Shown piece after piece: positions 9,740 to 49,790 of a DNA stretch of 64,000 nucleotides. A program made the translations under genes and the position numbers. The DNA comes from Tubulanus polymorphus (Eukaryota; Animalia; Nemertea). The stretch is taken from assembly GCF_964204645.1 (NCBI RefSeq), contig NC_134034.1:7352914-7416913 (forward strand), written 5' to 3'. Numbering within the stretch: position 1 is the first letter of the stretch; every line of letters starts with the position of its first letter. Under the pieces are notes generated by a model. The model saw only the letters and a program-made list of their open reading frames with translations, did not search any database and had not been told where the DNA came from.

Positions 9740-10178
9740 ATTTTTAAAAAGTGAGAGTTCTGATAGAATAAAGATAAGGTTGTCTAATAGTGAAAAACAT
9801 AAATTTATGGTAAAAAAACCTATAGCTAAACTGTTAGGAATTCTTCCAGATAGATCTTTTACAAATATTGACGCTACTACACCAAACTTAATACCTTACA
9901 CACACTTTTATATTTATTGCAATTTAATCGATCCTACAAAAACATTCGAAGCAACTAAAGATATAACTTGTAATTCTGGTTTACTAAACATTTTACCATT
10001 GAAGAATGTTAAAGAATTTGGAACGCAAATAAATTATAATTTAACAGAATGTGATTTCAAACCATGCATTCCTCGTTTTAATAATTTTAGATTAGAAATT
10101 AGAAATCATAATGGATACTTAATTGATTTAAATAATTTCCCTGTAATTTATGAATTAGTTATAAGATGTAGAGAGTAA
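9738..10178 (+). pseudogene. Minor capsid (penton-like) protein, C-terminal part, fused by deletion to pPolB
   Basis: Homologous to 37476-38264 (HFYIYCNLI..LLNILP..LIDLNNFPVIYEL). Confidence 0.65.
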
Positions 10179-18137: not shown

Positions 18138-18447
18138 AAACAACTACAATCATACAGTCAAAAATCTGTTACATGTTATTATAAGAGAGTGCTTCATTTG
18201 AATATTGATCAATCAAACAGGTGTTGCACAACGTTGTTGTTATATTGGATAGCTAGCAGTTACATAATAAGCACGCAGTACATACAACACACACAGGCCA
18301 GTTAGCCGGCATTGAACTACCACGTTTTCATTGGTTGCTGAAAGCGAGGTTTATTTAAATTAGCTCGGCCGTGACGACAGGAGGATAGTCATCATTCTCT
18401 CTCGTGATTAAAAGGAATATTTCAATGTTTTTACGGTAAGTTTTAGC

Positions 18448-18736
18448 AAAACCACCCGACTTGACTCGCAGAGTTTTTAGGGGATAAGCATCCCGTTATT
18501 GAGAGGCGCCACGAGATACCTATCCCCAAGCATTTCTACTTACACCCCTGTGGACCACGCTTCACCAATTCTCCTTCAATGGTTGACAGGAAACACATTA
18601 TATTAAAGGCGCCTAATGCATTTCCTATCAACCCCTTACCCCCGAAAGGAGGATCGAAAGTCGAAACTGAAGGAGAACCACGGAGGGTGGACAAAGGTGC
18701 ATTTTCGAAATGCCCCTGCAAGCCAAGCCCGGCGGC
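18448..18736 (-). ncRNA. Candidate structured Pol III ncRNA, copy 1 (unknown family)
   Basis: Same as 28168-28456; TATATAA at 18767-18761. Confidence 0.7.
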
Positions 18737-19206
18737 ACTCCAGTGGTTGAATGAATTGCATTATATACTTAGCTAAAACACCTAAGTAAATGTTGCTGGT
18801 GCTAAAAAAATATGTGAAATTTGAAATTATAAATTATTCCGAATGAAAAGAATATAAGAATGAAAACTGATAAATGAATTATGGATTTTTAACTTAATTA
18901 TGATATAATTTTTAATCAAATTAGTAATCAATTACTATGTTAATTGATTAACAAATTCAAATTCAAATTCAAATATTCATTTTAGCATACTCAGTGCTAT
19001 CATCTTTAAATTTAAGAAAAAACTAATAATAAGAAACGACTGTAATACAATATTCAAGTAAAAACAAAATAAATTAATAAAAATAATGAATATCTAGAAT
19101 CCGAAATGACTTATCTGGACAATTTAATTGCTCCGCATAGATAGACAAAAGTAGTGAGATATTCAATTAATTAAAAAAATTATTTTTTTTGCTTTTTTCT
19201 AAAATA

Positions 19207-19560
19207 TTAATCCATTTTCTTTATTATCAATTTTGGAATTTCAGAAGTATTTTCATTTTTGATAGCAGTTGTTTCAGAATTATTAATATCATGAATTTTA
19301 TTTGATTTCTTATACCAATTACGCCCAATCAAAATGAATACAATTACAAATCCAACTGTAAAATATAGACATTTATCAAATATTCTATCATTAGAAGGAT
19401 TAGAAATAACAATATTTTCACTATTTTTATTAACATTTTTATTACTTATTTTTTCTTTTACAGCTTTTTTATATTCTTGTGATTTAATTCCTAATTGTCG
19501 AGACCATTCAATTTGTTTCTGTGATCTCGGTTTTTTCTTCACTTCTTCCACCTCGCTCAT
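19207..19560 (-). CDS. Polinton single-pass membrane protein, 117 aa (copy of 28900-29280)
   Basis: Basic N-terminus, one hydrophobic segment, TAAATG start. Confidence 0.65.
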   Translation of the reverse strand: MSEVEEVKKKPRSQKQIEWSRQLGIKSQEYKKAVKEKISNKNVNKNSENIVISNPSNDRIFDKCLYFTVGFVIVFILIGRNWYKKSNKIHDINNSETTAIKNENTSEIPKLIIKKMD

Positions 19561-19904
19561 TTATTAGAGAAATATTTTTACTTTCAATATTTGAAAATGT
19601 TATAACCCCAGTTGATAATAATGTCATATATCCACCTAATTGAAATGATAAATATCCAATCCATTTATTTAATTCAGTCATAACTAAATAATCATCCCCA
19701 AAGTTTTGAAATTTCCAAATGTTAGTTCAGAAAGAACATAACAAAAAGCAAAAAGCATACACCGACAGAACGCAAAAGTTCTAAATACTGACGGGGCCGG
19801 AAAAGGTAGAAAAACGATTACAGTACCTTTTCACGACTCCGGAGCCAGACCACTATTCGCCAGTTCGACAGGCCCCCAATTTGTTACACGTTTGAAACAA
19901 ATCT

Positions 19905-21350: not shown

Positions 21351-21435
21351 TTATCCAAAATATACCAGACCGAGTAAATTTCCAAAACAACCTTAACACA
21401 CTGTTCGACCAAAAACTTAATGTTCCGACAAAACC

Positions 21436-21732
21436 ACGGGCGACAAAACCAAAATTATGAATCGTCGCGGGTGACAAAACCAAAATATTGAATTGTCACG
21501 GGTGACAAAACAAAAATAATGAATTGTCGCGGGCGATAAAACCAAAATAATGAATTGTCGTGGGCGATAAAACCACAATAATGAATTGTCGCGGGCGTTA
21601 AAACCAAAATATTGAATCGTCGCGGGCGATAAAACCAAAATAATGAATTGTCGCGGACGGCAAAAACAAAATAATGAATTTTTGCGTGCGACAAAACCAA
21701 AATAATGAGTTGTCGCGGGCGATAAAACCAAA
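21436..21732. repeat. 31-bp satellite, first block
   Basis: Unit AAAACCAAAATAATGAATTGTCGCGGGCGAY, about 9 copies. Confidence 0.97.
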
Positions 21733-23149
21733 CTAGGGGTCCAGGGACACCATGCTCACTTGGGAAGTGGTTTCAAATGCTCAACTATCTAACAATTTAA
21801 ATACATAACGCCCTCTAGTGACCATATACAAAAACCAATGACCTTGAAACCCACCACAATCATAGAACATGTGAGCAGCTATGATTTTGTAATTGATTGT
21901 GATAACAAAATATGCCTCGTTACCAATTTAATATGGAAATACTAAGTTATTCTACTATTCAACGCCCTCTGGTGACCATATGCAAAACCCAATGACCTTG
22001 AAACTCACCACAATCGTAGTACATGTCATGAAATACAATTTTGCAATTGATCATAGTAACAAAATATGCCTAGGTACCAATCTAATAAGGAAATACTAAG
22101 CCATTCTACTATTCAGCGCCCCCTGGTGACTATATAGAATAACTAATGTCCTTAAAAACTCACCACAATCATAGACGATGTCATGAACTACAACTTAACA
22201 ATGGATCATGGTAACAAACTATGCCTAGGTACCAATCTAATAAGGAAAAACTAAGCTTTTCTACTATTCAACGCCCCCTGGTGACTATATGGAATAACTA
22301 ATGTCCTTAAAAACTCACCACAATCATAGACGATGTCATGAACTACAACTTTGCAATTGATCATGGTAACAAAATATGCCTTGGTACAAATATAATATAG
22401 CGATACTAAGTTATTGTATTATTCAACGCCCCCTGATGGCCACATACGAAAACCAATGACCTTGAAACTCACCAAAATCATAGAACACGTTATGGGCTAC
22501 AACTTTACAATTGAATATAGTAACACAATATGCTTAGGTATCAATTTAATGTGGAAAAACTTTTTCCCACCTACGAATGAGTACTGATGACACCAAGATG
22601 GCCGCCAATTGCGTCATAATTGGCTGATCAAAAATACCTGTCCCAGGTATAAAACATCCCTCTCTAAAGAATACCCATCAGCAATTGCAATGAGAAATGG
22701 CAAACCAGTAGGAAGCTACAGGACCTAGAATTCTGGCCAAAATTGACATTTTTGGGCACTAAAAAGGTCATAGGACGGCCATCTTGAGTCAGATCGACCC
22801 ATTTTTCTTATGCTGATGGGCCTTTGGTAGATTCAAATATAAACGAAAGATCAAGGTAATTGATCAAAGCGTCTTCAAAATTTCCCACGAAAACTTCGAA
22901 AATGTTTAAAAAGTGCTGATTATGGCAAACAACAATGGCTGCCAGTCGACCATCTTGAATCTGACAGGGCTAGTTTTTGGGCTGACGATGTGTCTAGGGT
23001 AGATACATGTTTACACCAAATATCAAGACATTACCTTGAAGCGTCTTCAAAACTTCCCAAAATAACTGGATTCCGTCTATGGACGGACGGACGGACGAAA
23101 AGTGAACGCAATAGCCCGCTGGGACTAAAGTCCCAAGTGGACTGAAAAA
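21730..23149 (+). mobile_element. Non-autonomous Helentron/HINE-like element inserted in the satellite
   Basis: Inserted in an A-run without TSD; contains about 154-bp tandem repeats (21808-22555), a (GGAC)n microsatellite and the terminal hairpin TGGGACT-AA-AGTCCCA. A related end lies inverted at 59986-60050. Confidence 0.6.
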
Positions 23150-26100
23150 GAATTGTCGCGGGCGACAAAACCAAACTAATGAATTGTCGCGGGTGATAAA
23201 ACGAAAATATTGAATTGTCACGGGCGACAAAACCAAAATAATGAATTTTCGCGGGCGATAAAACCGTAATAATGAATTGTCACGGGCGATAAAACCAAAA
23301 TAATGAATTATCGCGGGCGACAAAACCAAAATAATGAATTATCGCGGGCGATAAAACCAAAATATTGAATTGTCGCGGGCGACAAATCAAAAAAAAAATT
23401 GTCGCGGGCGACAAAACCAAAAAAAATTGTCGCGGGCGACAAAAACAAAATATAAAACCAAAATAATGAATTGTCGCGGGCGATAAAACCGTAATAATGA
23501 ATTGTCGCGGGCGATAAAACAGAAATAAAGAATTATCGCGGGCGACAAAACCAAAATGATAAATTATCGCGGGCGATAAAACCAAAATATTGAATTGTCG
23601 CGGGCGCCAAAACCAACAAAAAAATTGTCGCGGGCGCCAAAACCAAAAAAAAAATTGTCGCGGGTGACAAAAACAAAATATAAAACCAAAATAATGAATT
23701 GTCGCGGGCGACAAAACTAAAAAGAAGGATTGTCGCGCGCGACAAAACCAAAATAATGAATTGTCGCTGGCGATAAAACCAAAATAGTGAAATGTCGCAG
23801 GCGATAAAACCGGGACAAAAAAAAAATTGTCGAGTGCGATAAAACCAAAATTATGAATTGTTGCGTGTGACAAAACCAAAACAATGAATTGTCGCAGGCG
23901 ATAAAACAAAAATAATGAATTGTCGCGGGTGATAAAACCAAAATATTGAATTGTCGCGGGCGACAAAACCAAACTAATGAATTGTCGCGGGTGACAAAAC
24001 CAAAATAATGAATTGTCGCAGGCGATAAAACCAAAATAATGAATTGTCTCGGGCGACAAAAACATAATATTTAATTGTCACGTGCGATAAAACCAAAATA
24101 ATGAATTTTCGCGGGCGACAAAACCAAAATAATGAATTGTCGCGGGCGACAAAACCAAAATAATGAATTGTTGCGGGTGATAAAACCAAAATAATTATTT
24201 GTTGCGGGCGACAAAACCAAAATATTGAATTGTCGCGGGCGACAAAAAAAAAATTAAACCAAAATAATGAATTGTTGCGGGCGACAAAAACAAAATATAA
24301 AACCAAAATAGTGAATTGTCGCGGGCGACAAAACCAAAATAATGAATTGTCGCTGGAGATAAAACCAAAGTAATGAATTGTCGCGGGCGATAAAACCAAA
24401 ATATTGAATTTTCGCGGGAGACAAAACAAAACTAATGAATTGTCGCGGGCGACAAAACCAAAAAAGAATTGTCGGGGCGACAAAACCAAAATAATGAATT
24501 GCCGCGGGCGACAAAACCAAAATGGTGAATTGTCCAGGGGACAAAACCAAAATGGTGAATTGTCGTGGGCGACAAAACCAAAATAATGAATTGTCGTGGG
24601 CGATAAAACCAAAATAATGAAGTCGCGGGCGACAAAACCAAAATAATGAATTGTTGCGGGCGATAAAACCAAAATAATGATTTGTTGCGGGCGACAAAAC
24701 CAAAATATTGAATTGTCGCGGGCGACAAAAAAAAAATTAAACCAAAATAATGAATTGTCGCAGGCGACAAAAACAAAATATAAAACCAAAATAGTGAATT
24801 GTCGCGGGCGACAAAACCAAAATAATGATTTGTCGCTGGAGATAAAACCAAAGTAATGAATTGTCGCGGGCGATAAAACCAAAATATTGAATTTTCGCGG
24901 GAGACAAAACCAAACTAATGAATTGTCGCGGGCGACAAAACCAAAAAAGAATTGTCGGGGCGACAAAACCAAAATAATGAATTGCCGCGGGCGACAAAAC
25001 CAAAATGGTGAATTGTCCAGGGGACAAAACCAAAATGGTGAATTGTCGTGGGCGACAAAACCAAAATAATGAATTGTCTTGGGCGATAAAACAAAAATAA
25101 TGAATTATCACGGGCGATAAAACAAAAATATTGAATTGTCGCGGGCGATTAAACCAAAATATTGAATTGTCGCGGGCGACAAAACCAAAAAAAGATTGTC
25201 GCGGGCGACAAAAACAAAATATAAAACCAAAATAATGAATTGTGGCGGGCGATAAAACCGTAATAATGAATTGTCGCGGGCGATAAAACAGAAATAAAGA
25301 ATTATCGCGGGCGACAAAACCAAAATGATAAATTATTGCGGGCGATAAAACCAAAATATTGAATTGTCGCGGGCGACAAAACCAAAAAAAAAATTGTCGC
25401 GGGCGCCAAAACCAAAAACAAAATTGTCGCGGGCGACAAAAACAAAATATAAAACCAAAATAATGAATTGTCGCGGGCGACAAAACTAAAAAGAAGGATT
25501 GTCGCGGGCGACAAAACCAAAATAATGAATTGTCGCTGGCGATAAAACCAAAATAATGAATTGTCGCAGGCGATAAAACCGGGACAAAAAAAAAATTGTC
25601 GAGGGCGATAAAACCAAAATTATGAATTGTCGCAGGCGATAAAACCAAAATAATGAATTGTCGCGGGCGATAAACCCAAAATATTGAATTGTCGTGTGCG
25701 ACAAAACCAAAATATTGATTTGTCGCGGGTGACAAAACCAAATTAATGAATTGTCGCGGGCGATAAAACCAAAATAATCAATTGTTCCGGGCGATAAAAC
25801 CAAAACAATCAATTGTCACTGCTGATAAAACCAAAATATTGAATTGTCGCGAGCGACAAAACCAAAATATTGATTTGTCGCGGGTGACAAAACCAAATTA
25901 ATGGATTGTCCCGGGCGATAAAACCAAAACAATGAATTGTCGCGGGCGATAAAACCAAAAAATTGAATTGTCGTGGGCGACAAAACCAAAATACTGATTT
26001 GTCGCGGGTGACAAAACCAAATTAATGAATTGTCGCGGACGATAAAACCAAAATATTTAATTGTCGCAGGCGATAAAACCAAAATCTTGAATTGTCGCGG

Positions 26101-26446
26101 GCGACAAAACCAAAATATTGAATTGTTGCGGGCGACAAAACCAAACTAATGAATTGTTGCGGGCGATAAAACCAAAATAATGAATTGTCGCGGGCGATAA
26201 AACCGCGACAAAAAAAAAAAATTGTCGCGGGCAATAAAACCAAAATAATGAATTGTCGCGTGCGACAAAACCAAAATAATGAATTGTCGCGGGCGATAAA
26301 ACCAAAATAATGAATTGTCGCGGGCGATAAAACCAAAATATTGAATTGTCGCGGGTGACAAAACCAAATTAATGAATTGTCGCGGGCGATAAAATCAAAA
26401 TAATGAGTTGTCGCGGGCGATAAAACCGAAATAATGTTTTGTCGCG
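23146..26446. repeat. 31-bp satellite, main block (about 105 units) with higher-order duplications
   Basis: Same unit; variant blocks recur at offsets 483 and 1769. Confidence 0.97.
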
Positions 26447-26544
26447 TTATTTCAGTTTTGTGGTTTTGTCATAATGTCGCCCTCATTTGCATATACGTGT
26501 TTTTTTTTACACATGGCCCTTATCAGCCACCATACTAAAGCCTT

Positions 26545-26891: not shown

Positions 26892-28167
26892 CTCCGAATG
26901 TCAAGTGAGTCCAGCATACGGATAGGAGTGTGTTATATACTTGTATTTAGTAAATAACTTGTGCATTTGACAATGATCGGTATGTACTGTAGGAAATATA
27001 GAGTATTGATGGTATTGATATAGAGGTTGAAGCCCGCGGCCGAATAAAGTAATATATTCTTTTATTTTGATACCTCGTCGACATAACAGCTTTTCTCCGC
27101 TATATCTCTTCGGCGTGTTTAGTTTAGGCCTACGATTCCCCGGTACACTAAAGATTTATCTTAGTAAATACACGGTTAATTCGGTGAAGAAAAATAGGTA
27201 TTGTTATACTAACTCCTTGAAACCCGCAGCCAAATCACTGGTAGTAATAAATTAATTTGTACTCGATTTGATTCTCATGATGAGGAGAAACAGGCAGCTG
27301 ATCCCCGGAACGACGATGTAGTAACACACGTCGATTCGTCGATGTTTACGGCTCGACAGTGCTTTTAAAATCTAAAGTAGTAAATTTCCAGTGTATCGGT
27401 AATATGATTTGATGAGGAAAATGGGCTATTGTTAAAATCACTGTTTGAAGACCGCGACTGAATTTGAAGTCTGCGGCAATAAATTAGTTCATTTATACTT
27501 GAATTGATAATCGAAGTGACAGTCGGCCTGCGGGTTGATTTCGGTTTGACGATTCGAAAAACATGTCGCCCCATTGAATGGGGCTAAATTTTCGATGTTT
27601 ACGGCCCGACAGCGCATTTGTAACGATGATTCGTGAAAAAACACGAGGGCTATTTGTAGATCTCAGTGAGCTGAACGATATTATATGGATTGTATATGAA
27701 ACAGTGGTAAGGTAACAAAGCCTATGTTCTTTTGGTAAAAATAGTGTGGAAGAAAATAATAATAATAATAATCACGCGGATATCAATAGGGTTTTCTGTG
27801 AAATAACAGAAAACCCTAATGAATATCTAGAATCCAAAATGACCTTAGTCGTTTTATAAACAACTACAATCATACAGTCAAACATCTGTTACATGTTATT
27901 ATAAGAGAGTGCTTCATTTGAATATTGATCAATCAAACAGGTGTTGCACAACGTTGTTGTTATATTGGATAGCTAGCAGTTACATAATAAGCACGCAGTA
28001 CATACAACACACACAGGCCAGTTAGCCGGCATTGAACTACCACGTTTTCATTGGTTGCTGAAAGCGAGGTTTATTTAAATTAGCTCGGCCGTGACGACAG
28101 GAGGATAGTCATCATTCTCTCTCGTGATTAAAAGGAATATTTCAATGTTTTTACGGTAAGTTTTAGC

Positions 28168-28456
28168 AAAACCACCCGACTTGACTCGCAGAGTTTTTAG
28201 GGGATAAGCATCCCGTTATTGAGAGGCGCCACGAGATACCTATCCCCAAGCATTTCTACTTACACCCCTGTGACCCACGCTTCACCAATTCTCCTTCAAT
28301 GGTTGACAGGAAACACATTATATTAAAGGCGCCTAATGCATTTCCTATCAACCCCTTACCCCCGAAAGGAGGATCGAAAGTCGAAACTGAAGGAGAACCA
28401 CGGAGGGTGGACAAAGGTGCATTTTCGAAATGCCCCTGCAAGCCAAGCCCGGCGGC
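28168..28456 (-). ncRNA. Candidate 289-nt structured Pol III ncRNA (unknown family), copy 2
   Basis: GC-rich island. The 5' and 3' ends pair (19 of 20 bp); internal 20-bp, 17-bp and 14-bp helices are complete only with G-U pairs on the minus strand. Starts at G 31 nt after TATATAA and ends at the first TTTT. Confidence 0.72.
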
Positions 28457-28480
28457 ACTCCAGTGGTTGAATGAATTGCA

Positions 28481-28522
28481 TTATATACTTAGCTAAAACA
28501 CCTAAGTAAATGTTGCTGGTGC
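28481..28522 (-). promoter_or_regulatory. TATA box (28487-28481) and possible PSE-like element near -66
   Basis: Spacing equals that of U6-type Pol III promoters; the PSE match (GCACCAGCAACATTTACT) is weak. Confidence 0.5.
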
Positions 28523-28899
28523 TAAAAAAATATGTGAAATTTGAAATTATAAATTATTCCGAATGAAAAGAATATAAGAATGAAAACTGATAAATGAATT
28601 ATGGATTTTTAACATAATTATGATATAATTTTTAATCAAATTAGTAATCAATTACTATGTTAATTGATTAACAAATTCAAATTCAAATTCAAATATTCAT
28701 TTTAGCATACTCAGTGCTGTCATCTTTAAATTTAAGAAAAAACTAATAATAAGAAACGACTGTAATACAATATTCAAGTAAAAACAAAATAAATTAATAA
28801 AAATAATGAATATCTAGAATCCGAAATGACTTATCTGGACAATTTAATTGCTCCGCATAGATAGACAAAAGTAGTGAGATATTCAATTAATTAAAAAAA

Positions 28900-29280
28900 T
28901 TATTTTTTTTGCTTTTTTCTAACATATTCATCCATTTTCTTTATTATCAATTTTGGAATTTCAGAAGTATTTTCATTTTTAATAGCAGTTATTTCAGGAT
29001 TATTAATATCATGAATTTTATTTGATTTCTTATACCAATTACACCCAATCAAAATGAATACAATTACGAATCCAACTGTAAAATATGAATATTTATCAAA
29101 TATTCTATTATCAGAAGGATTAGAAATAACAATATTTTCACTATTTTTATTAACATTTATATTACTTATTTTTTCTTTTACAGCTTTTTTATATTCTTGT
29201 GATTTAATTCCTAATTGCCGAGACCATTCAATTTGTTTCTGTGATCTCGGTTTTTTCTTCACTTCTTCCACCTCGCTCAT
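28900..29280 (-). CDS. Polinton single-pass membrane protein
   Basis: ORF with TAAATG start and one hydrophobic segment. Confidence 0.7.
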   Translation of the reverse strand: MSEVEEVKKKPRSQKQIEWSRQLGIKSQEYKKAVKEKISNINVNKNSENIVISNPSDNRIFDKYSYFTVGFVIVFILIGCNWYKKSNKIHDINNPEITAIKNENTSEIPKLIIKKMDEYVRKKQKK

Positions 29281-29818
29281 TTATTATAGAAATATTTTTA
29301 CTTTCAATATTTGAAAATGTTATAACCCCAGTTGATAATAATGTCATATATCCACCTAATTGAAATGATAAATATCCAATCCATTTATTTAATTCAGTCA
29401 TAACTAAATAATCATTTTTTAAATCGGAATATAATCTATTTTCATCTTCAATTGGTAGTATATAATTACATAATTTACTATAACCTTTTACTACATTTTC
29501 TGATATCGCGTCATTAATTCTAGCTGTTCTCGCGGCTTCATAAATCTTAAATAATCTAATAATTTCATCTGATTTCATTGTATCTAATTCATTATAAGTT
29601 AAATTTTTACGGACAAAATTTTTACATTTTCCAGATGCTATTAATATTTCTAATTGATGTTTACAGTAAAGATAATATTCATAATTATTATTTGTTGTAA
29701 CATTATTTAAAACACCATCATCTGGAATTAATTTGTTTTCTGTTATTCCTAAATCATCTAAAGTTTTTTCAATTGGAACATCACCATTTTTAGATTTTAT
29801 TTTCTTTTCACCTACCAT
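29228..29818 (-). CDS. Polinton hypothetical protein, 196 aa
   Basis: ORF with T7-GTTATA-TAAATG start context. Confidence 0.7.
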   Translation of the reverse strand: MVGEKKIKSKNGDVPIEKTLDDLGITENKLIPDDGVLNNVTTNNNYEYYLYCKHQLEILIASGKCKNFVRKNLTYNELDTMKSDEIIRLFKIYEAARTARINDAISENVVKGYSKLCNYILPIEDENRLYSDLKNDYLVMTELNKWIGYLSFQLGGYMTLLSTGVITFSNIESKNISIINERGGRSEEKTEITETN

Positions 29819-29849: not shown

Positions 29850-30115
29850 CAACTACTAGAATTCAACTAGAATGTAACTAGAATTCAACTAGATTAACAA
29901 GCTAGTTGAAATATTGTTATTTTTGTTTATTTCTTGTTAAATCTAGTTGATTTTTGTTCCAACTACCAATAACTAGAATTCAACTAGAATGTAACTAGAA
30001 TTAAACTAGATTAACAAGCTAGTTACAATATTGTTAAATTCTAGTTGAATTCTAGTTACAACTACCAATAACTAGAATTGTAACTAAATATGTAATTGAT
30101 TAACAAACTAATTGA
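29850..30115. repeat. Degenerate 11-bp repeats (AACTAGAATTC) in both orientations
   Basis: Visible directly; includes a duplicated block of about 55 bp. Confidence 0.85.
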
Positions 30116-30165
30116 ATTTAAATAAATTCATATTTAAATGGGTGTTGTAATCTAAATAGTAATTT

Positions 30166-30726
30166 TTATCTTTTAATATTTTTCAACTTATCCATATATT
30201 CATTATGTAAATCATGTGGAATAATATCATTTTCCTCAAGTGCATTTTTCATCGATTTTCTATCTTTATTGTAGAAAAAAACTAGAAATCTAATGTTTTC
30301 TCTAAAGTCTTTAACAATTGAATTATATTTTTGATTTAAAACCCAAGTTGTTATCCCAAAATGTCTCCCGGAGAAAGCTAAATAACATAACTCACTTTCT
30401 CTAACTTTTGAATCATGTAAATTTGCACAATCATCTATGATAAATAATGTATTTGATCCTTTATAAATATCAATTGCTATTTTTATACAATTATCTAAAT
30501 TTTCTTTTACTGTTTTAGGATCTAATATAATAAATTTATTATTTCTAGTAATATTTCGATCATAAGTTTGATTAAATTCATATGTTGGACAAAATAATAC
30601 TATATTATCAAAATAGTTTTTATAAACAGTTTCTAATAAATTTAATATAAAATAAGTTTTTCCACAATTTGTTACACCAGAAATTAACATATTATGAGGC
30701 TTAAATATGAATAATTCCTTATTCAT
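30166..30726 (-). CDS. A32/FtsK-HerA-like DNA packaging ATPase
   Basis: GVTNCGKT, LFIIDD, SGRH, VLNQ. Confidence 0.92.
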   Translation of the reverse strand: MNKELFIFKPHNMLISGVTNCGKTYFILNLLETVYKNYFDNIVLFCPTYEFNQTYDRNITRNNKFIILDPKTVKENLDNCIKIAIDIYKGSNTLFIIDDCANLHDSKVRESELCYLAFSGRHFGITTWVLNQKYNSIVKDFRENIRFLVFFYNKDRKSMKNALEENDIIPHDLHNEYMDKLKNIKR

Positions 30727-31853
30727 TTATATATTTTTAATTTTACTTGATAATATCCATTTATTGAATTTATTTGGCCATCCAACCCATTTTACTAAAG
30801 AATATTTTTTCTTTTAATAGTTTTTGTTTTTAATACTTTTTCAATTTTATATTCTTGTTCTAGATTTTCAGTAGTTAAACTTAATTCTTCTTCGTAAAAG
30901 TAGCCATCAACTTCTTCACCATCTAAATCTTCTAATTTATAGACATATGGTTTTGTTGTTATTACCTTTTTTATTTTATATATTTCTCTAGTAAAATTTC
31001 GATCGTATCCTTTATCAAATATCTTTTTATACTTAGAAATTCTAACATTTTGACCAACTTTAAATTTAGGTTCACCAAAATCATCTACAAGAAATACTCC
31101 ATATAAATTATTCCAAACAATTTCAGCATTTTCAGGTTTTCTAGCATCAATAGGTTTCATTCCAATAGAAGAATGATAAGAATTATTATAACCTTCTATC
31201 AATTTTGGTAAAACATCAATCCATTTTAAAGTATTATTTGCTGTAAAATATTTCCACATTCTTGTTCTTAATGTTCTATTAAATCGTTCAACAACTGCTG
31301 CTTTTTTATCTGATTTTGTTGAAAAATATTTAATATTATGATTATCTAAGAGCTCATGAACAAGTGAATTATCAAACTCTTTTCCATCATCAAATTGTAT
31401 TTTTTCTGGTTTTAGTTTATCATCCGAAAGAAATTTTCTTAAAACATTTGATGTTTGTACAGCATCTTTTCTATAAAGTGGGAAGCTCCATACATAACGA
31501 CTAAAAATATCAATTATATTCAATAACCACCAATAATCATCATTATCTTTCGTAACATTTTTCATATCAATTAAATCTCCTTGCCACTGTTGATCTACAT
31601 AACTTACCATAGTTTTACGAGTTTTATATTTTCTAACAATTTTTTTATGTGTTGTGTATGTTGGTTGTTCTAACATAAATTCATTTATATCTTTATATTT
31701 AACTAAATTGTGTGGGATTATCTTATCTAATTTATCTTGTTTTACTTTACACCATATATTTTTAGTAGAAGGATAAGCAACCGAACTCTCAGGGTTGTAA
31801 TATAAATTTCTTAAATATTGTTCTTTAGTATTAGGAGTTTTTTTACCTCCCAT
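30727..31853 (-). CDS. Retroviral-type (rve) integrase with C-terminal chromodomain
   Basis: DDE residues in WQGDLID, QFDDGKEF and VERFNRTL; the chromodomain LVKWVGWPNKFNKWI follows a frameshift in an A-run near 30810. Confidence 0.93.
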
Positions 31854-31883: not shown

Positions 31884-33131
31884 CTAATATTGAATACTAT
31901 CTAACTGTGAATTTACAATATTTAATTGTGCGTCAGATATAATATAAATGTGCATTTTGAAATTTTTGTCTCCTTTTTTCTTTTTCATGAATAATCGTAT
32001 TCCATCTTTAGTGTTTTGTAATTTCTTCCCAGAACCATGTAATGAATTATCCTCTGTTGTTCTAAAATCTAACCATAATGCATATTTATTACCGGTATAA
32101 TAATCAATTTGATTAATATTACAATTTTCAAATGATTTTACTTTTTCATTCATAAAATGTTTTCTAATTTCTGGCCATTGATCAATCATTCTCATTCCTT
32201 GACAAAATATTTTATTTGCTATTCCTTCGATAGTTATTTCAACTTTTGTTATTTCAGGATTATAATAATTATCTACCTTTATTGGACCATTAGAATATGT
32301 TGCAATGGTAAAAAATATTAATATACCTTTAATAGATCTTCTTGGGAAGTTAATATTCTCATTAATTATTTCATCATTTGCATTAATAGTTACAGTTTTA
32401 AATTTATCAATATAATCATATAATAATGAAAATCCTTGATTGTATTCAGTTTGAATTGTGCTAGCAATATTTTCATTAGTTACTGTGTTATATTCTAAAC
32501 ATATATTCGATAATTTATAACCCATATCTTTAACAACGCTAGATAATAAAATTTCATTTACAGGAGCAAATGTTATCTCAAATATAATATCTTCTTGAAT
32601 TGCATATTTATATAAAGGTGCATTGTTATTTATCAATTCAAAGTCTAATGGAATTTTATATTTGCTTCCATAAATCTTTTTAATCAAATTATCTGAGGCA
32701 CGAGTTACTATTGCGTCATTAGCTCCTGATCTTAATTTATTATGGTTTTCCGATTGAATACCCTGAAATATCATATTATTTCTATTTTCTTTAGTTAACC
32801 ATAAATCTTTATAATGCATAAATAAATTATAATCATCTAATGAGAAAACTGTTTCTGGACCAAACTTTATAATTAATTTTTTAATCAAATATCTCCCAAC
32901 ATTATCGACAACATAATTATTATCATGACCAGTTACTTTTATATCGGCTGATAAATAAATACTGTTTGGAACATAAAAAGTATTTTGTGTTAATCTAGGA
33001 ATTCTAACATATAAAGTTTCATCGGGATTAATATTTGAAGGGTTATGAGTAATTATATGATGTGATCTTTCTGCTTTAATAGCATTAGATATTCTAGAAA
33101 TCTTAGAGGGACTTATATAACTCCCACTCAT
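31884..33131 (-). CDS. Major capsid protein (double jelly-roll, inferred), 415 aa, intact
   Basis: Size, beta-strand-rich pattern, position beside integrase and ATPase, and strong conservation with element A. Confidence 0.75.
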   Translation of the reverse strand: MSGSYISPSKISRISNAIKAERSHHIITHNPSNINPDETLYVRIPRLTQNTFYVPNSIYLSADIKVTGHDNNYVVDNVGRYLIKKLIIKFGPETVFSLDDYNLFMHYKDLWLTKENRNNMIFQGIQSENHNKLRSGANDAIVTRASDNLIKKIYGSKYKIPLDFELINNNAPLYKYAIQEDIIFEITFAPVNEILLSSVVKDMGYKLSNICLEYNTVTNENIASTIQTEYNQGFSLLYDYIDKFKTVTINANDEIINENINFPRRSIKGILIFFTIATYSNGPIKVDNYYNPEITKVEITIEGIANKIFCQGMRMIDQWPEIRKHFMNEKVKSFENCNINQIDYYTGNKYALWLDFRTTEDNSLHGSGKKLQNTKDGIRLFMKKKKGDKNFKMHIYIISDAQLNIVNSQLDSIQY

Positions 33132-37475: not shown

Positions 37476-38264
37476 TTACTCTTTACATCTTATAACTAAT
37501 TCATAAATTACAGGAAAGTTATTTAAATCAATTAAATAACCATTATGATTTCTTATTTCTAATTTAAAATTATTGAAATGTGGAATACAAGGTTTGAAAT
37601 CACATTCAGTTAAATTATAATTTATTTGAGTTCCAAATTGTTTGACATTTTTTAATGGTAAAATATTTAATATACTAGAATTACAAATTGTATCTTTAGT
37701 TGCTTCAAATGTTTTTGTTGGGTTAATTAAATTGCAATAAATATAAAAATGTGTAAAAGGTATTGAGTTTGATATACCGTATATGTTTCCAATAATAAGT
37801 TTATTTGGAGGAATTCCTAACAGTTTAGCAAAAGGTTTTTTTACTGCGTAAGCATGTCTTCTTAACATAAATGAATCAGGACTAATATTTTCATCATCAA
37901 ACTTTACTTTAATTTTATTAGAGCTCTCACTTTTTATGAATTTAATATTAAATTTAGAATCACTACCTAACATAATCCGAGCTTTTCTATTAATTTCTTG
38001 CGCTAATGTTTCTAAATTATATAATCCTGGTGTAATCATAAGTTGAAAATTATTATTACTACGTTTATCAAGAATAAAAAAGCTTCTATGTTCATAAGTT
38101 TTATCTTATATATTGTAAAATGAGTTACATAAACTTATATTTACTAATTTTAAATCAACACAATTCTTAAATTCTCTATCTAATTGAACTAGTAAATTAT
38201 GTGATTTATAATTTGTAAGTTTTCTAGAATCAACATATATTCTGTATTCTTTTAATTCTACCAT
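37476..38264 (-). pseudogene. Minor capsid (penton-like) protein, about 262 aa, one in-frame stop at 38106-38108
   Basis: N-terminus MVELKEYRIYVDSR..LLVQLDREF, PGLY motif and C-terminal FYIYCNLI..ILP pattern typical of Polinton minor capsids. Confidence 0.65.
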
Positions 38265-38331
38265 TATTTATCACATAAAAAAATTACCGCTCATCACTAA
38301 AATTAATTTTAACAAAATTTTTCCTTAATAA

Positions 38332-39647
38332 ATGGATGAGAAGATAGCATGCGAAATTTGTGGTGAACTTCTAAGAAAAAGTAATATGGCTCGACATATG
38401 AAAAAACATGATGAAAATTATAAACCCCCTAAAATAAACTGCCCAAAATGTAATAAATTATTCTCAAGAAATTATGTTAAAAAACATTCAGAGAAGTGTA
38501 GAATTAATGGCGCAACGGCTAATGTTGATAGTAATGAAAGTAATAGTAATTCTGCCGAAGTTGAACCTGAAGTTATTTGGAAAAGACCTTTCTTATTCTA
38601 TGATACGGATAATATAAAAGATCATTTCTGCGAGCCTTGTCGAATAAAATATAACCCTGAAAATATAGAAGATTGGGAGAATCATCAATTTCGTAAAGTA
38701 CATATAGATAAAATTTCTAATAAATTTGAAACTGAATTTAATGAAAGAAAAAATAATTTATTAGAAAAAATAAAATATGAGAAAACGTTACCAGATAATA
38801 GAGAAACAGTTGAAAAGTTAGAAAAACAATATAATGAATTAACAAGAAAAACATATTATTGTAAATATTGTAAATTGATTATTACAACAAGTAATTCAAA
38901 TCTACATAATAGAACATTAAAACATAAAGAAAACGTAAGAAAATACCAAGAGCTTAATGAAGATCTATTACCAATAAATTATAAACGAAAATGTCCACAA
39001 TGTAGTTATGCGACCTTAAGACAAGAAGGTACTGTGTTATTTTGTGTTGATTGTGGGTGGCAAAAGAATTTATGGGGTGAAGAAAAAACTAGAAATTTTC
39101 TCATAGATCCAAAATTAAATTATCTAGATGAAATTTTTAAAATATTTTCTATAGAAGATCATACACCAGAATATATGCAATGGCTTGAAAAAATGAAAAT
39201 AATAGAAAATAAAAATGGCGAAATAACTAAAAAAGATATTATAAATACAATTATTCCGTCAACATTTAACACAAAACAAAAGAAAATGTATTTATATTTA
39301 TTATTTTTAACGATTATTATGAAAAACCTAAATTAACAGTAGAAGATATGGAAAATATAAAAAAAAATATTCAAACAAATATTAATGTATCATTTGGAAA
39401 ATAGAATAACAGATTCAATAAATTATGAATTCTTTTTAAATAAGATTGTAAATTATTTAAACCTAGATATTATAATTCCATTTGACGAATTAACAAACAA
39501 AAAGAAACAAAGAGAGCGAGATGAAATGTGGAACAAGATGGAACTTTATTTAAATGAAAAAATGGAATGGAAGAAGAACCTAAACAATTAAATGAAAATG
39601 AAGAAGCCAATAGTGATTTCGAGTTTGATGATATAGATCCATTTTAA
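38332..39647 (+). CDS. Multi-zinc-finger protein fused to a poxvirus A2/VLTF-3-like late transcription factor domain (homopolymer frameshifts near 39306, 39363 and 39560)
   Basis: Four C2H2/C2HC fingers, then CPQC-x13-CVDC, RNFLIDPKLNYL, KPKLTVEDMENIKKIF, SINYEFFLNKI and DEMW. These match my recollection of vaccinia A2 (CSGC-x13-CIFC, SNFHVSNKLIHL, TINYSFFLDKI). Confidence 0.75.
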
Positions 39648-42600
39648 TAACCATAAGGTAATGTTTTTATACCATCATCTAAAATATGCCTTTTATCATC
39701 AAATGGATTTAAACTAGTTTTTTCAACTTCATTAATGTACATTTCATGATCTTCTGATCTTAAACAATTCATTTTGTGTTTCATTACAATTGATTTATAT
39801 AAACACTTTATATAATCTTGAAATTCTATATGTTTATCAACCACATGTTTTGTTATTCCTTTTAACTTTTTAGCTTCATGATCTTTTGTTCTGTAACTAT
39901 ACATTTTACTTCTTATCCCAACAAATTCAATCATTTCATCACCCCCTAATTCATCTTTAAATTTACCAGGAATCTTTTTATTATCATTGCTAAATAGTTC
40001 ATGATCTTTGGGATAATTGCTAAAATCAAAATAATGTTTTAATGTTTTTAAGTCTTTTGTTATATCATTTGTCTTGATTTTTAGTATGTAACTGTCGGTA
40101 TTTTTTTGGATTAATGGGAACCCAGAATTGAATGTTCCATCATCTGTTGATAAATCATAAACATAGTCAGTTGGGTTATATATTTCAAATAAATCTTTAA
40201 CTTCTTCTGTTAATTCTTTTTCTACATGCCTTAAATTAAAACAATTTGGTTTAGATTTGATTAATTCTATATTCATATTAAATCCTAATGAACTGCATAA
40301 TATATTCAATCCTGATATAGCAACTTTTCCTTTTTGAGCAAAGGATATTGTTTTGCGGTTTTGGAAACTTTTTGAACCATCTGCGGCATAGAATCCAATG
40401 AAGAACCACTTTCTTAAATTATTTTTTGCATTCAATACATAATCTGGAACTATCTTTTCTTTTGTTGAAGTATTACTTTTCACTATTGCATGAATATAGA
40501 ATTCATCATTATATTTTGTAGCAAAATCTTTAGGATTATTTACAAATATTCTATAAACCGCGGATGATTTCATATGATCCATGATTCTAAATGTTTTATA
40601 TGAATAAACTTCTTCGCAGAATTTCTTTATTCTTTCTAATAATTTCAAATCTTGATTGCATAAATACCAACGATATTGAGTGCGATTAACATAATTATAC
40701 ACACCTGCTGAACCATCACCCATGAAAAATCCTTTGATAAAATATTCTTTTTCTTCTAATGTTTCAGGTTCTATATTATAAATATTATCAATAATTTCAT
40801 CAAATGACATATGATTCATTCTTTGGAAAAATCTTTTATGTAATAATTCATCTCCAATTTTTATATCAGTTGGTTTTATTTCATCACCATTTCGTTTAAT
40901 TAAACTATGATCTTCTGTAACATCTACAAATCCTAATTTAGTTCTAACTCTATAGATTTTCTTATTTGTTTTATGCCTAATAATATTCTTTAATTTTTTC
41001 CATCCATTTCTTGTCCAAACATCCATTAAACCATTTATTTGTATTAATTCTTTTTCTCCATATGAAATATAACATTCATTTTGTTTTGGAATTATTTCTG
41101 AAATTCTTCTTATCAATATTTTATTATTACATTTTAATAATATTGGGGTGTCAGCTGTTACAGGATCGAAATATAATATTTCAATATGCTTTTCCCCAAA
41201 AAGTGGTTGTAAAACAATATAATAAAAATCATACATTAATAATTTTGATACTTCTAAAACAGTCGAACCAATAAATATAGGTTTATTAAATTTCATTGAT
41301 GTTCTTTTTAATTTAACTGCTGTTAAATAATCTTCAAATCTTTTATTTCCTAAATGTCTATGACTTGATTGTAGGTGTCTTAATCTTTCAGAATTATTTA
41401 CTAATTCAATATCATTTCTATTTCTAATATTTTCGCATGTTTTACCATAAAAACTATTATTCATTAATTTGAAGAAATCTTTTTCAAAATCTGTTTTTGA
41501 TATGGTTCTCTATTGAGTATTGAAATCTATATATTTTTCTAACCACTTCGATTGATTAAATTCAATATATTTATGTACTTTCTTTAATTTCATTCCTTGT
41601 TTTAGATAAAATTTTAACATTCTATAATGAACAATATAATTGTATTTACTATTTTGAGTAAGTATTAATTTTTCTGTAAAAACATGATCTTTCGGTTTTA
41701 TTTTCTTCTGGTATTCACTTAAATAACTATCATCTACAGTTAAATGTTCTGGGCAATAAGGTAAGTTTCTTGTTTTAAACTTTATATTTTCAGGATATTC
41801 TAAATCAACTACAAAGAAATAACCAATTGGTGCTTCATCTTTTAAACTCGCAATTGCGCTTTCCCAATCAGTTTTATCACCATTTTCAACTTCTGTTAAT
41901 ATAAAACTTTTATATGGTTGAGGTTTCATCATTGCCCAACCATATAAATTATTGGCGTCAATATATAATAATTTATATTCATCATTTGCTTTAAAATATC
42001 TATCTCCCATAACACCACTAATTCCACCTCTAATTGATTTTTCAAATAATAAAACCATATCTGGTTCTTTTAATAAATCTAATTCTACATTTGTATATTT
42101 TAAACCACATTGCCAGGTTAAACCAGGACTAGAGTAGCAATAACAAGGATCAACATTAAAATGATTCAAATTAACTTCTCTAAATTTTTCAAATATGTCA
42201 GCCAATATCATAACGTCTGATTTTAAATATAAATCAACTAATTCACCATGATTTTTCATCTTAAAATGGTTCCAAATATTTAATGTTCTATTAAACACTT
42301 CGTCTTTCACATACTCCTCTTTTAATTGATCATAGAATTGATCTTTTAATAATTCTGTTACATTAAAATCATTGTGTGTTTTATAAAATGAATAAGGAAT
42401 TGCGCCTTTATATCTCAATAATTTAAAATCTTGTTCATTTGGATAATAATATCGAGTTATAACAAAATCATTATCAACTAAACTTTTTGATAAATTATCT
42501 AATGAACTTGCTAGAAATCTATAAGAATCTAAAAATCTAATGCAACCAAATTGAAATGAAATATAATTTTCAGATGTTTTAGCTAATAGTTTAAAATCAT

Positions 42601-44717
42601 ATTTTCTTACATTTGCTTCATTCATAGCATTCATTATATTCTTCTATTTCTTGATTAATTGCGCCAAATTTTCCCGATAATTTTTTTATAAATAGATGGG
42701 TATCATATCCTGATAAATTATGAAATAATATTGGTACGAAATTTACTTTTTTAGCTGGTAAATTGCAATCTTCATGAGCAGCTCCACGATATTTTGAATT
42801 CAAATGATCATGATCTCTAACTCTTTTATCAAATGAATAAAAACGTTTTTCACAATAACAACAATGAGTTGCATAATTAAAATCAATTTCATCTTCTTTT
42901 GTCATAACTATTCTTTTATTTTTGTTTAATAATTTTGCAAAATCACTTTCTAATTCAATCATTTTATCACAAAAATCATTAACTACATTTTCACCTCTAA
43001 AAGAAATATATTGACTTTCATATAATTCAGGATAATTTGATTTTATATAAATTCCATAAGCAGCAGCTCTTTGATGAACTTTTTTAATTGTATTTATAAT
43101 TGGTGGGTCTTGTATTGTGTCTTCATTTAATTCATTTCCTTTATCCATTGATTTTAATAATTGCTTTTTGTTATATATTTCTTTTCTATCTTGATTAGTT
43201 AATTCTTTATTCAATGATTCAAAATCCCCATAAATTACAAATGGAACAATATTCTTAAATTTATGATTAGTAAATTTCAATTTATAATCTTTTTCTGTTG
43301 GCATTATTAATTTACAAAAATCTTTATTATCACATAATTCTTTATGTTTTAGTAACGCATTCTCAGTCATAAATTTAGATAAACATTTTCTACATAGATA
43401 AATTTTATTATGATGATCACTTTCTGTTCTAAAGAATAAATCAATTTGTTTTAACCACATATAATGTTCATTTTCATCTTTTTTGTAATATAACAAATCT
43501 ATAGCATTTTCATCATCATAATATTCTGTTAAATATAAAGCTTCCAATGTATAATCTTTAATATTTTCACCTTTTGTCTTTGGTAATTGCATTAATTCGA
43601 ATACATTTTTTTTTAAATTATTAACTTTTTCTATTTTAGGAATCATTTTCATAGTTACTGGATATTGATCAATTTTATATAATGTTTCATATTTCCGGTA
43701 ATTTGTTATTCTAAAACTATGCGTCATATCTTCTGTTGGGTGTAAACAACTAATAATTGACCATAGAAAACATTTATTATCTTCATTTTGAATATTTATT
43801 ACTGCTTTTGTTGTAAATGGTAATTTAATATAAGATGATGCTTTAATATCCTTTTCTGTTGTAAAGTTTGAATCATTTTTAAACATTTTATTACTTTTTG
43901 ATGTTTTATTCCTTTTTGTATTATAAACATTTAAATCTAAATATATAATTTCATTCAATGTTGAGCCAGAACCCTCAAAATATCTTTCTTCAATATGACG
44001 TTTAAATTCATTAAATATTTTTTCTAACTTCTCTTTTATTTGTGTTTTTGAAATTATTTCTTCAGAGAGTGTTTGAATATTATAATCCATTTTATCTTCT
44101 GACTTTAAAAAACTTACTTTCCCAGAGATACTAATTTTTGGATATTCAACATCTGTTATCAAATCTAGTATTTTTTCTATTATTTCACTAAATTTGCTAT
44201 AATCTTCTATTGTTGTTCCTTTAAAAAATCTAAATATAATAGCTGCAGGACCAATTTTACTACGTAATGTTTCTAAAATTTCAATTGTATCTTTTATTTC
44301 TAGTGAATCAATATAATTTCTAACATTTTCCATGTAAGGTTTATTTGAAATGGATTTAGTTTTTGAAGTTGATTTTTTTACTTGTTGAGGTTTATTATCA
44401 AAATATTCTGGTCCTAAAACATTTTTATTTAAATTTTTATAATGTTTTTGTGATTCGAGATGTCTATTATAATTCCTTTTTATTATAAATTCATTACAAA
44501 CTTCACATTTTATTTCATCCACATTCATATTTTCTAATCGTTCTTTTCTTTCATTGGAATTTTTTGGAGTTTCAAAATCTATTACATTTTTTATATGATT
44601 TGCAGATTTTTCATGTCGTGATTTTTGGGATTTATCGATGTATTTTTTACGATATGTGCAATAATATTGATTTTTATTAACATTATTATTTTCTGGTTGG
44701 TGTTCATTCTCCCCCAT
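39644..44717 (-). CDS. Protein-primed DNA polymerase B with intein (one frameshift near 42625, one stop at 41510)
   Basis: Zn fingers, OTU-like NEDNKCFLW..HYMWL, ExoI-III, RDHDH..RGAAH..CN insert, motif A YIDANNLYG, motif B KLMNNSFYGK, motif C YFD/TDS split by the intein, then RSKMY and KLKGI. Confidence 0.95.
40100..41164 (-). mobile_element. Intein with LAGLIDADG homing endonuclease in pPolB motif C (355 aa, in frame; residue 1 is Pro in this copy)
   Basis: Block A (S/P)VTADTPILL, block B VDVTEDHSL, endonuclease motifs IKGFFMGDG and FIGFYAADG, block F YVYDLST, block G LIQKN followed by +1 Thr (TDS). Confidence 0.95.
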
Positions 44718-44797
44718 TTATAAGGAAAAAAAATTACTTGTGGTGATGAGTGGTCGACCTTCGACCTCTGGTATGAAAGCCTACTTTCCCAATTACT
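44629..44797 (-). repeat. Right terminal inverted repeat of element B; contains the pPolB promoter motif and start codon
   Basis: Reverse complement of 20294-20462. Confidence 0.95.
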
Positions 44798-45768
44798 TAA
44801 ATGCTGTCACTAAAACCGATTCATTTCCAATGCCACGGATCGATGATTTAATTGATAGAATTGGCAACGCAAAATTTGTGTCAACATTTGATTTGACAAA
44901 AGGTTACTGGCAGGTTCCGCTCACTGATCGTGCAAAAATGATTTCGGCCTTTGTTACTCCAAATGAGTTGTTGCAGTATAAAGTTATGCCCTTTGGCATG
45001 AAGAACTCCGCTGCTACGTTTCAGAGGCTAATGAATAGGGTCACTGAAGATTTAGAGTCTACGTATGTGTATTTAGACGATATCGTTTTGGAGGCGGATG
45101 CCTGGGATGATCATCTGACCCAAATTCGTGCTTTCGTCAAATCAACGGCTTTCGTCAAGCCTATACTTGATTTTCCTCAGCCACCTGATAAACGATCATT
45201 AATGCATTTCTTGGGTATGGCTTGTTTTTATCGGAAATTCTGTAGAAATCTAGCTCAAATTACTGCTGTTTTAACTGATTTGTTTAAAAAAGAGGTGAAA
45301 TTTGAATGGACACAGCAGTGTAGTAACGCGTTCGAATCTGTGAAGTCCATGTTGGCAGCTAGTCCTGTATTGCGAGCACCTGATTTTAATAGTCAATTTC
45401 GGCTAAGTATTGATGCTAGCGACAACGGGGCTGGTGCTGTTCTTACTCAGAGTGATAAGGATGGGGTTGAACATCCCGTCTGTTTCTTTTCAAAGAAGTT
45501 CAACTCTGCACAAAAGATTTATTCTACTATTGAAAAGGAGTGTCTCGCGCTGGTACTGGCTGTTGACCATTTCGAGATTTATGTGAGTACCGGGAGATTT
45601 CCTGTAGTCGTATTTACTGATCAGGATCCTTTAGTGTTTTTAAGCAGGATGAAAAATAAAAACAGGAGATTGATGTGTTGGAGTCTGTACCTACAGGAAT
45701 ATAACTTGGATATCCATCACATTCGCGGATCTAAGAATGTGATAGCTGATACATTGTCGCGGGTGTAA
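44798..45768 (+). mobile_element. Gmr1-like Gypsy pol, remainder of RT plus RNase H
   Basis: NAVTKTDSFPMPRIDD, FDLTKGYWQ, MPFGMKNS, YLDD, DAS, YSTIEKE, and NVIADTLSRV followed by a stop with no downstream integrase; short internal deletion near 45140. Confidence 0.92.
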
Positions 45769-48610: not shown

Positions 48611-49790
48611 CCTGAAAAATAGGGATAGCAAGAATCAGTAACCTCGAAACCACGTACTAGTCGTCTCTTTCTCGACGTCTCTTCTTTATTTTTACGAGTT
48701 TTTCGCTTCACTTTAGCGGTATGGTCATCCCAATAGACTCGAATGATTTCAGGAGGCAGGTTGTCGGCTGGCTCAAACGTGTTCTCATTATCGTCATAGC
48801 CAACCCATTTTATAAGATATTTCAGAATGCCTTTCTCTTTTTTGTGACGAATCACTCGTTCTACGTGATAGATTGGCTAAACCGGCCTTTCTTAGTCATC
48901 TGGTGTAAGGGGGCCGCAATAGTGCTGTAACCTTTACAAAAACGCCGATAATAATTGGTGAACCCCAGAAAACTTCGTAGTTCTTAAAGTTAGTTAAAGT
49001 CGTGGGAACAGGCCATTCCTGTACGGCTGCTACCTTTTCCGGGTCAGTAGCAATGCCATCCCTGGATATACGATGTCCCAAGAAGTCAATGGTTTTGACC
49101 GCGAACCGACATTTCTTGGGGTTTAAGCGAAGGCCTGACTCACGAAACCGATCAAATATTCGGGCCAAATGATTTAAATGGCTATAAAATGAGTCCGAGT
49201 AGCAGATTATATCGTCCAAATATACCAAACAAAATTTTCCAACCAGGTCTCTTAGCAAACCACCGGTCAACCTTTGAAAGGTAGATGGCGCCGATTTTAG
49301 ACCAAATGGGAGTACCTTAAATTCCAAAAGAGACGACTGGGTTATGAAAGCAGTTTTTTCTCTACTGGCCTCATCGACCTCAACTTGCCAGTAGCCACTT
49401 AGAAAATCAAGTGAGCTGAAGAATGTGGGTGCTGCTTGCCCAACTTGAGCCAAGAGATCATCGATTCTAGGCAGGGGGAAGGAGTCCGAACGAGTGACCG
49501 CATTCAATCCCCGATAGTCAACACAGAATCTCCACTTGACTTCACCATCCGGGCTCTTTTTTCGTACGAGAACTACTGGGGCGGCCCATGGGCTAGTACT
49601 ATGCTGTACTACTCCCATGTCCAACATCTGTTTCACATGAGTGTTCGATGACATCTTGCATGGCTGGAGAGGCTCTATAAGGCCTTTTCCGAATCGGAGC
49701 TGCGTCCCCTGTGTCAATGACGTGCTTGACTAAGTCGGTTTTGCCAAGTTCGTCCGGCGATGTCCCTGTATGAGCGGATGAGTTCTAAAA
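48595..49790 (-). mobile_element. Second Gypsy pol relic: RT joined by deletion to an integrase chromodomain
   Basis: SPWAAPVVLV..WRFCVDYR..LPFGLKSAP..YLDD; then [22 protein letters not shown]. Confidence 0.9.

Follow-up and report, generated by a model that had tools for sequence, protein, structure and literature searches.

We identified, in a damaged Polinton-type element of the nemertean Tubulanus polymorphus, a gene in which four zinc fingers are fused to a domain that, by its sequence, belongs to the VLTF-3 family, the family of vaccinia virus late transcription factor A2. Most genes of the same element start at a poxvirus-style TAAATG motif. We propose that the element is provirophage-like and is transcribed by a poxvirus-like helper, with the finger-fused factor favoring the element's own genes, and give this reading a probability of about one half. 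The main interest lies in the pairing of an apparently rebuilt poxvirus-type late factor with element-wide poxvirus-type starts, rather than in the frameshifts that interrupt the gene.

Results

A Polinton-type element with a single plus-strand gene

The 64-kb window, the whole stretch of DNA analyzed, holds three damaged Polinton-type copies: A, B and the start of C (Table 1). Copy B has the protein-primed B-family polymerase (pPolB) and rve integrase that mark Polintons/Mavericks, together with a packaging ATPase and a major capsid protein, the last by feature similarity only: the candidate had no Pfam match and no PDB sequence match, and its feature-similarity clusters include Preplasmiviricota and carry capsid Pfams on 10–14% of members. 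No maturation protease was matched by Pfam among the ORFs scanned, and a search for AGTAGT-type ends at copy B found none, the copies being truncated and interrupted. The element ORFs that were scanned yielded no RNA polymerase. The VLTF-3 gene is the single plus-strand gene of copy B and lies tail-to-tail with pPolB; the two stop codons overlap in TTAA in copy C (63842–63845), as a preliminary description of this DNA had stated, and also in copy B (39644–39647). Copy A has lost the VLTF-3 gene through a deletion (9721–9810) that fuses the middle of pPolB to the gene beyond VLTF-3. Between A and B, pPolB is 73% identical and the structural genes are 90% identical, a contrast hinting at module exchange.

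Table 1. Coordinates of the features discussed, numbered from the first nucleotide of the window.
Feature	Position	Strand	Remarks
Copy A	~7–18 kb		damaged Polinton-type element
Copy B	~29–44.7 kb		mostly minus strand
Copy C	62.3–64 kb		element start only; window end cuts off the rest
A32-type packaging ATPase	30166–30726	−	PF04665, E 1.8e-13
rve integrase	30795–31853	−	PF00665, E 2.7e-10
Probable major capsid protein (double jelly roll)	31884–33131	−	feature score 0.98
Post-replicative promoter-like site, poxvirus type	38318–38334	+	T-run before a TAAATG that overlaps the start codon
334-aa ORF	38332–39336	+	four fingers, zinc ribbon, first half of helical VLTF-3 domain; out of frame past break 1
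Fingers 1 (C2H2) and 2 (C2HC), adjacent pair	38350–38499	+	residues 7–26, 37–56
Finger 3 (C2H2, widely spaced)	38629–38703	+	residues 100–124
Finger 4, U1/matrin type	38851–38946	+	residues 177–198; zf-U1 34.1 bits, cut-off 22
CxxC-x13-CxxC zinc ribbon	38992–39054	+	residues 221–241; spacing as in chordopoxvirus A2
Bridging stretch	39270–39404	+	second frame; short, open; bridging helix
Break 1	39304–39308	+	T run; frame change; 186/236 reads differ in length
Break 2	39359–39367	+	A run; 139/253 reads differ in length
76-aa piece	39361–39591	+	second half of VLTF-3 domain; PF04947 E 3.6e-5
Break 3	39557–39562	+	A run; at two adjacent positions, 50 and 35 of ~129 reads have another length
Acidic tail and stop	39558–39647	+	shifted frame
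pPolB (protein-primed B-family polymerase), copy B	39644–44717	−	three pieces; two N-terminal fingers; intein
3' end of VLTF-3 gene, copy C	63842–64000	−	open through acidic tail; cut at window end

Several other features of the window were recorded. An intein with a LAGLIDADG endonuclease lies in the copy B pPolB (~40103–41164, minus strand), directly before the TDS catalytic motif, and the same intein is present in copy C (~62300–63390, plus strand); at the first codon of the intein, nearly all reads disagree with the window copy. PMC11161782 mentions endonuclease insertions in the pPolBs of polintons. Between the ATPase gene and the gene that follows it, short imperfect repeats of palindromic character with AACTAG units occupy 29850–30125. 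A 1.56-kb direct duplication of 98.7% identity (18138–19695 and 27858–29415) encloses a 31-bp tandem array (~21400–26500), and pieces of an LTR-retrotransposon reverse transcriptase (44746–45768 and 48896–49654) adjoin the pPolB start of copy B.

Three breaks in a gene of a multi-copy family

The 334-aa and 68-aa pieces of the preliminary description were recovered in one frame, the second being 76 aa from stop to stop, 68 aa from its own ATG, and containing the INYxFFLxKI motif (39418–39447). The bridging stretch and the acidic tail lie in another frame, and the former matches residues 426–477 of the unbroken homolog P0002 (pairwise E 1e-7). Two homopolymer frameshifts had been proposed and both fall at runs, but the count is three, the break before the tail having been missed; the acidic tail reported for copy C is indeed open in the minus-strand reading. 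The domain tests below were run on the separate pieces or on unbroken homologs.

Illumina reads from another sample of the same species (1.9 Gb read) cover fingers and domain at an even depth of ~200–300, with no common length difference in 38332–39303. Even, high depth together with the length differences at the breaks indicates that the gene belongs to a multi-copy family, that its fingers and domain stay together, and that most copies lack the breaks. Real decay is somewhat more likely than sequencing error as the source of the breaks, because the window copy has ~10 substitutions of its own over 1.45 kb, the copy B pPolB has a stop-codon break as well (41510–41512), and of the 27 non-triplet indels that distinguish A from B only 2 fall in runs of at least 5. 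All three breaks do lie in homopolymer runs, as assembly errors would. Selection among the copies gives a weak signal, with 9 of the 21 listed shared differences silent as compared to 24% expected (P 0.04). Just upstream of the gene, read depth doubles (38148–38271) and 321 reads run into other sequence at 38265. Related subfamilies thus have this divergent intergenic region in common, and their gene in the VLTF-3 slot is either another one or much diverged.

The helical domain belongs to the VLTF-3/A2 family

The 76-aa piece scored 24 bits against PF04947, just below the cut-off of 25. The unbroken homologs gave no PF04947 row in the Pfam scan, probably through loss at the HMMER filter or too great a divergence, and PF08792 (A2L zinc ribbon) did not match the window protein. 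The ribbon lies N-terminal to the helical domain, as the family requires. In an Atlas feature search, 30 of 30 matches were in PF04947 clusters (top 0.93, with recognition below the threshold of the tool).

Scanning viral contigs for the motif gave 120 loci. Ten of them encode full-length proteins of 224–228 aa and 7 encode partial proteins of this type; the four of these that were tested are A2 (PF04947 and PF08792). A profile of the element-type domain aligned end to end with 10 of 10 full-length chordopoxvirus A2 proteins at 45–54 bits, as compared to at most 15 bits for the other motif carriers. With the shared motif masked, the pox A2 proteins still reached 22–30 bits against at most 17.7 bits for seven giant-virus VLTF3 proteins (L122–L128, found in 6 of 22 records), in a comparison whose pox set was chosen by that motif and which holds no entomopox, asfar or egovirus sequences. 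HHalign matched the element-type domain to pox at 97.5% (E 5e-12) and to giant viruses at 91.4% (E 9e-7), probabilities that are rough since the pox-versus-giant-virus control failed (0.7%). In the tree, the path to pox is 6.3 and that to the nearest giant-virus row 6.7; the three groups are unrooted with long branches, two near-identical pox rows were left out, and the set was free of entomopox, asfar and egovirus rows.

These sequence comparisons place the domain in the VLTF-3/A2 family as an anciently diverged member, which bears out the preliminary assignment on profile, HHalign and Foldseek evidence alike. It aligns with A2 nearly gap-free over ~190 residues at ~20% identity, keeping the ribbon cysteines, the NYxF[FY]LxxI motif and the terminal Trp; the ribbon spacing and motif to which the preliminary description had pointed are thus common to A2. 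The domain leans toward the poxvirus type over the giant-virus type in its profile scores. The match had been called close and is in fact distant, and in the tree the pox path is hardly shorter than the other.

Poxvirus A2 (PF04947 Pox_VLTF3 with PF08792) also resembles the element factor in predicted fold. Unlike A2, the element factor has ~220 extra N-terminal residues with the four fingers, an acidic tail, and an integrated carrier in which no RNA polymerase was found. Giant-virus VLTF3 proteins belong to the same family by HHalign and Foldseek and have N-terminal extensions too (369–462 aa). Unlike the x13 ribbon of the element, those with a plain ribbon (5 rows) have a spacing of 14 and an NFLSYxY motif, and giant-virus proteins score lower than pox A2 against the element-type profile.

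The predicted fold is a zinc ribbon with one cyclin repeat

A model of the domain built from an alignment that held pox rows reached pLDDT 72. With Foldseek it matched cowpox VLTF-3 at TM 0.60 (E 1.5e-5, pox rows being in the alignment), and 5 of the 8 rows at E<=0.001 are named VLTF3, from pox, entomopox and giant viruses; Tetraselmis virus VLTF3 came third, with an E-value in the same range as pox. The model of the homolog P0003, made without pox rows, was poor (pLDDT 48); among the matches of this low-confidence model, cowpox VLTF-3 nevertheless came fourth (E 6e-3), and 8 of the 50 rows listed were late-factor entries. The preliminary description had named the lack of a profile or structural match to A2/VLTF-3/TFIIB-like proteins as refuting it; a profile match to A2 and fold matches to VLTF3 and, as given next, to TFIIB-like proteins were found.

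Neither Foldseek against PDB nor a PDB sequence search gave a match at E<=0.001, and no solved VLTF-3 structure was found. Among solved chains, the 31 best rows for the domain model are all cyclin-fold by title (Z 5.0–6.7 over ~90 residues, modest values below 8 though the class is uniform), and comprise cyclins, TFIIB/TFB, Rb-pocket and Orc6 proteins. The domain is accordingly predicted to consist of a zinc ribbon and a single cyclin fold, like the first half of TFIIB. TFIIB has two cyclin repeats as compared to one in the model, and no PDB sequence match to TFIIB reached E<=0.001, so the likeness is best taken as a claim about how the protein may work and not about family membership. We found no report of A2 as TFIIB-like in a search that had most subscription papers and supplements outside its scope, and such a reading may already be published. 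To our knowledge, VLTF-3 is a universal but structurally unsolved giant-virus marker.

The finger fusion is conserved

A sequence search of 1.84 billion representatives gave three matches, two of them real: P0002 (697 aa, 39% identity to the 334-aa ORF) and P0003 (446 aa, 27%). Both are unbroken, and both hold four fingers, ribbon and helical domain within one chain, so the fusion is conserved. The four fingers named in the preliminary description are borne out by these homologs and by residues 7–198 of the window protein, where finger 1 matches Pfam zf-C2H2 at 26.5 bits (cut-off 25.2); finger 3 of a homolog is above the cut-off for zf-C2H2_jaz. Fingers 3 and 4 are far apart and of the U1/JAZ type, and may therefore bind RNA or protein instead of DNA.

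The third match, P0004, was dropped as a repetitive chance match. The locus of the P0003 gene (L001, 1,662 bp) has no neighbor gene. Word-based homolog searches gave nothing beyond the known homologs, scans of viral contigs for close relatives with the gene pieces, the pPolB end and P0002 were empty, and tblastn against phage gave no match. U1-like C2H2 fingers also occur at the pPolB N-terminus (44421–44717, minus strand) and at 6900–7270 and 15888–16340 (plus strand), which includes a small gene of copy A. In pairwise comparison they resemble the fingers of the VLTF-3 protein only weakly (E 2e-4 to 0.06), and the fingers look like a module reused by the element.

Most element genes start at poxvirus-style motifs

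Twelve of the 14 copy B genes start at TAAATG; the other two starts are changed or missing and were left out of one test (there 12/12). The background is 4.8% of other ATGs and 6.2% of first ATGs in short spurious ORFs, giving a probability of ~3e-13 for 12 of 14 by hand calculation. A T lies ten bases before TAAAT in 11 of these 12 starts, mostly within a T-run, and the 17 sites in the window that combine T-run and TAAATG are all within elements. Six listed copy A starts agree, although they are not independent of B, and the P0003 gene also starts at TAAATG. In control loci the motif opens 15/42 starts for pox and 4/22 for giant viruses. It also opens 24/227 starts (11%) in other, unrelated viral loci, and this frequency of an AT-rich motif tells against the start-motif argument. 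The coding strands show no clear depletion of TTTTTNT, except perhaps in pPolB (5 vs 10).

Vaccinia late promoters consist of a T-run and a TAAATG consensus that includes a T at −10, and intermediate promoters are an A-rich variant, according to PMC11980589; PMC5294985 agrees. With TAAATG, upstream T-run and T at −10, the element starts match the late consensus. The sequence before TAAATG is A-rich instead of T-rich at the ATPase (30726, minus strand), the integrase (31853, minus strand) and small genes at 29280 (minus strand) and 15888 (plus strand). These stretches resemble poxvirus intermediate promoters, while capsid, pPolB and others carry the T-run; a two-step expression cascade is possible on this pattern. 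We found no report of pox promoters in Polintons or of the finger fusion, most subscription papers and supplements lying outside the search.

Discussion

VLTF3 genes in small integrating DNA viruses are already published. They are reported from coral polintoviruses (PMC11131425, citing Krupovic and Koonin 2016), MELD viruses (PMC8502044) and Zephyr PLVs (10.64898/2026.06.19.733378), where they are linked to giant viruses or mimivirus, unlike the pox lean here; PMC11253617 states, to the contrary, that VLTF3 is undetected outside Nucleocytoviricota. The terms "zinc finger" and "late transcription" are absent from the coral polintovirus and adintovirus texts, figures and supplements aside.

The nearest parallel in lifestyle is the virophages. 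Mavirus, Sputnik and Guarani carry the late promoter of their helper before most or all genes, as described in PMC6723459, and copy B likewise has a helper-type motif before most genes. Mavirus also has an integrase and pPolB, like the element, and its wake-up by the late factor of its helper is proposed there. Unlike the case of the virophages, the putative helper here is poxvirus-like, with none known, and the element carries its own late factor. PLVs from entomopoxvirus occlusion bodies (PMC11296320) are small integrating viruses proposed to be poxvirus parasites, and resemble the element by that lifestyle proposal; the words promoter, VLTF and transcription do not occur in the main text of that paper.

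Because poxvirus-style starts are combined with an element in which no RNA polymerase was found, we infer that the RNA polymerase of a helper is probably borrowed. The integrated element would stay silent until RNA polymerase, capping and the remaining late factors (equivalents of A1 and G8) arrive with the helper. The element's factor would then be expressed from its own TAAATG promoter, the fingers would tether it to element DNA or RNA, and the intact factor would join the late initiation complex of the helper, biasing it toward element promoters. More tentatively, and at somewhat less than even odds, the family may be a widespread, high-copy endogenous "poxvirus virophage", all of it wired to post-replicative promoters, that captured the A2 of a helper long ago and rebuilt it with fingers to hijack late transcription. 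Against the main reading stand the similar tree distances, the low identity to A2, the third rank of Tetraselmis virus VLTF3 in Foldseek and the pox sequences in the alignment behind the better fold model.

Since A2 already comes with the helper, a second copy might equally act as a competitor. It is possible, though we think it unlikely, that the finger-fused factor of a helper-dependent element mainly competes with helper A2 and throttles the helper's late genes, to protect the host or divert resources. Promoter and family evidence are the same for this as for a factor that favors the element. Helper A2 would suffice for TAAATG promoters, making the element copy redundant as a plain activator; the factor has diverged far from A2 and gained fingers and an acidic tail; and the doubled depth and divergent reads upstream suggest that the slot behaves as accessory cargo. 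A general block would, however, harm the element itself, whose capsid and polymerase genes have late-type starts, and the ribbon cysteines, motif and terminal Trp are kept, as in a working factor. The preliminary description had the factor redirecting or blocking helper late transcription; the promoter motifs, to which it had not referred, independently favor the link to a helper, and on sequence the two actions are indistinguishable.

Host Pol II starts 25–30 nt from its TATA element. This distance bears on an account that we hold to be just as doubtful, in which there is no helper, a TFIIB-like factor brings host Pol II in the nucleus to the T-run/TAAATG starts, and the fingers give DNA specificity. 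The modeled ribbon and cyclin fold would suit such a factor, and a phycodnavirus without RNA polymerase keeps VLTF3 and is presumed to use host Pol II (PMC12085832), which also weighs against the need for a helper. The Pol II spacing, however, could not be accommodated, since the motif overlaps the ATG, and the motif agrees with the late consensus of vaccinia, including the T at −10. Because the gene of the factor itself has such a start, another activator would be needed first, and fingers 3 and 4, distant and of the U1/JAZ type, are unlike a tandem DNA-reading array. Least probable of all is that gene and start motifs are relics of a free-living ancestor, the gene now a passenger in a family that spreads as a transposon: all three window copies are damaged, copy A lacks the gene and the selection signal is weak, but the even read depth without common length differences over 38332–39303, the two unbroken homologs at below 50% identity and the retention of the start motifs argue against it.

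How Polintons are transcribed without an RNA polymerase of their own, and whether they need a helper, is a long-open question, and a captured late factor together with element-wide pox-style starts makes the helper question directly testable. Further gains are A2 variants that diverged in nature and, for the fold, the hypothesis of ribbon plus cyclin repeat. If the "poxvirus virophage" reading is true, an undiscovered poxvirus-like virus of Tubulanus polymorphus would be indicated, and VLTF-3 would prove to be a one-repeat TFIIB.
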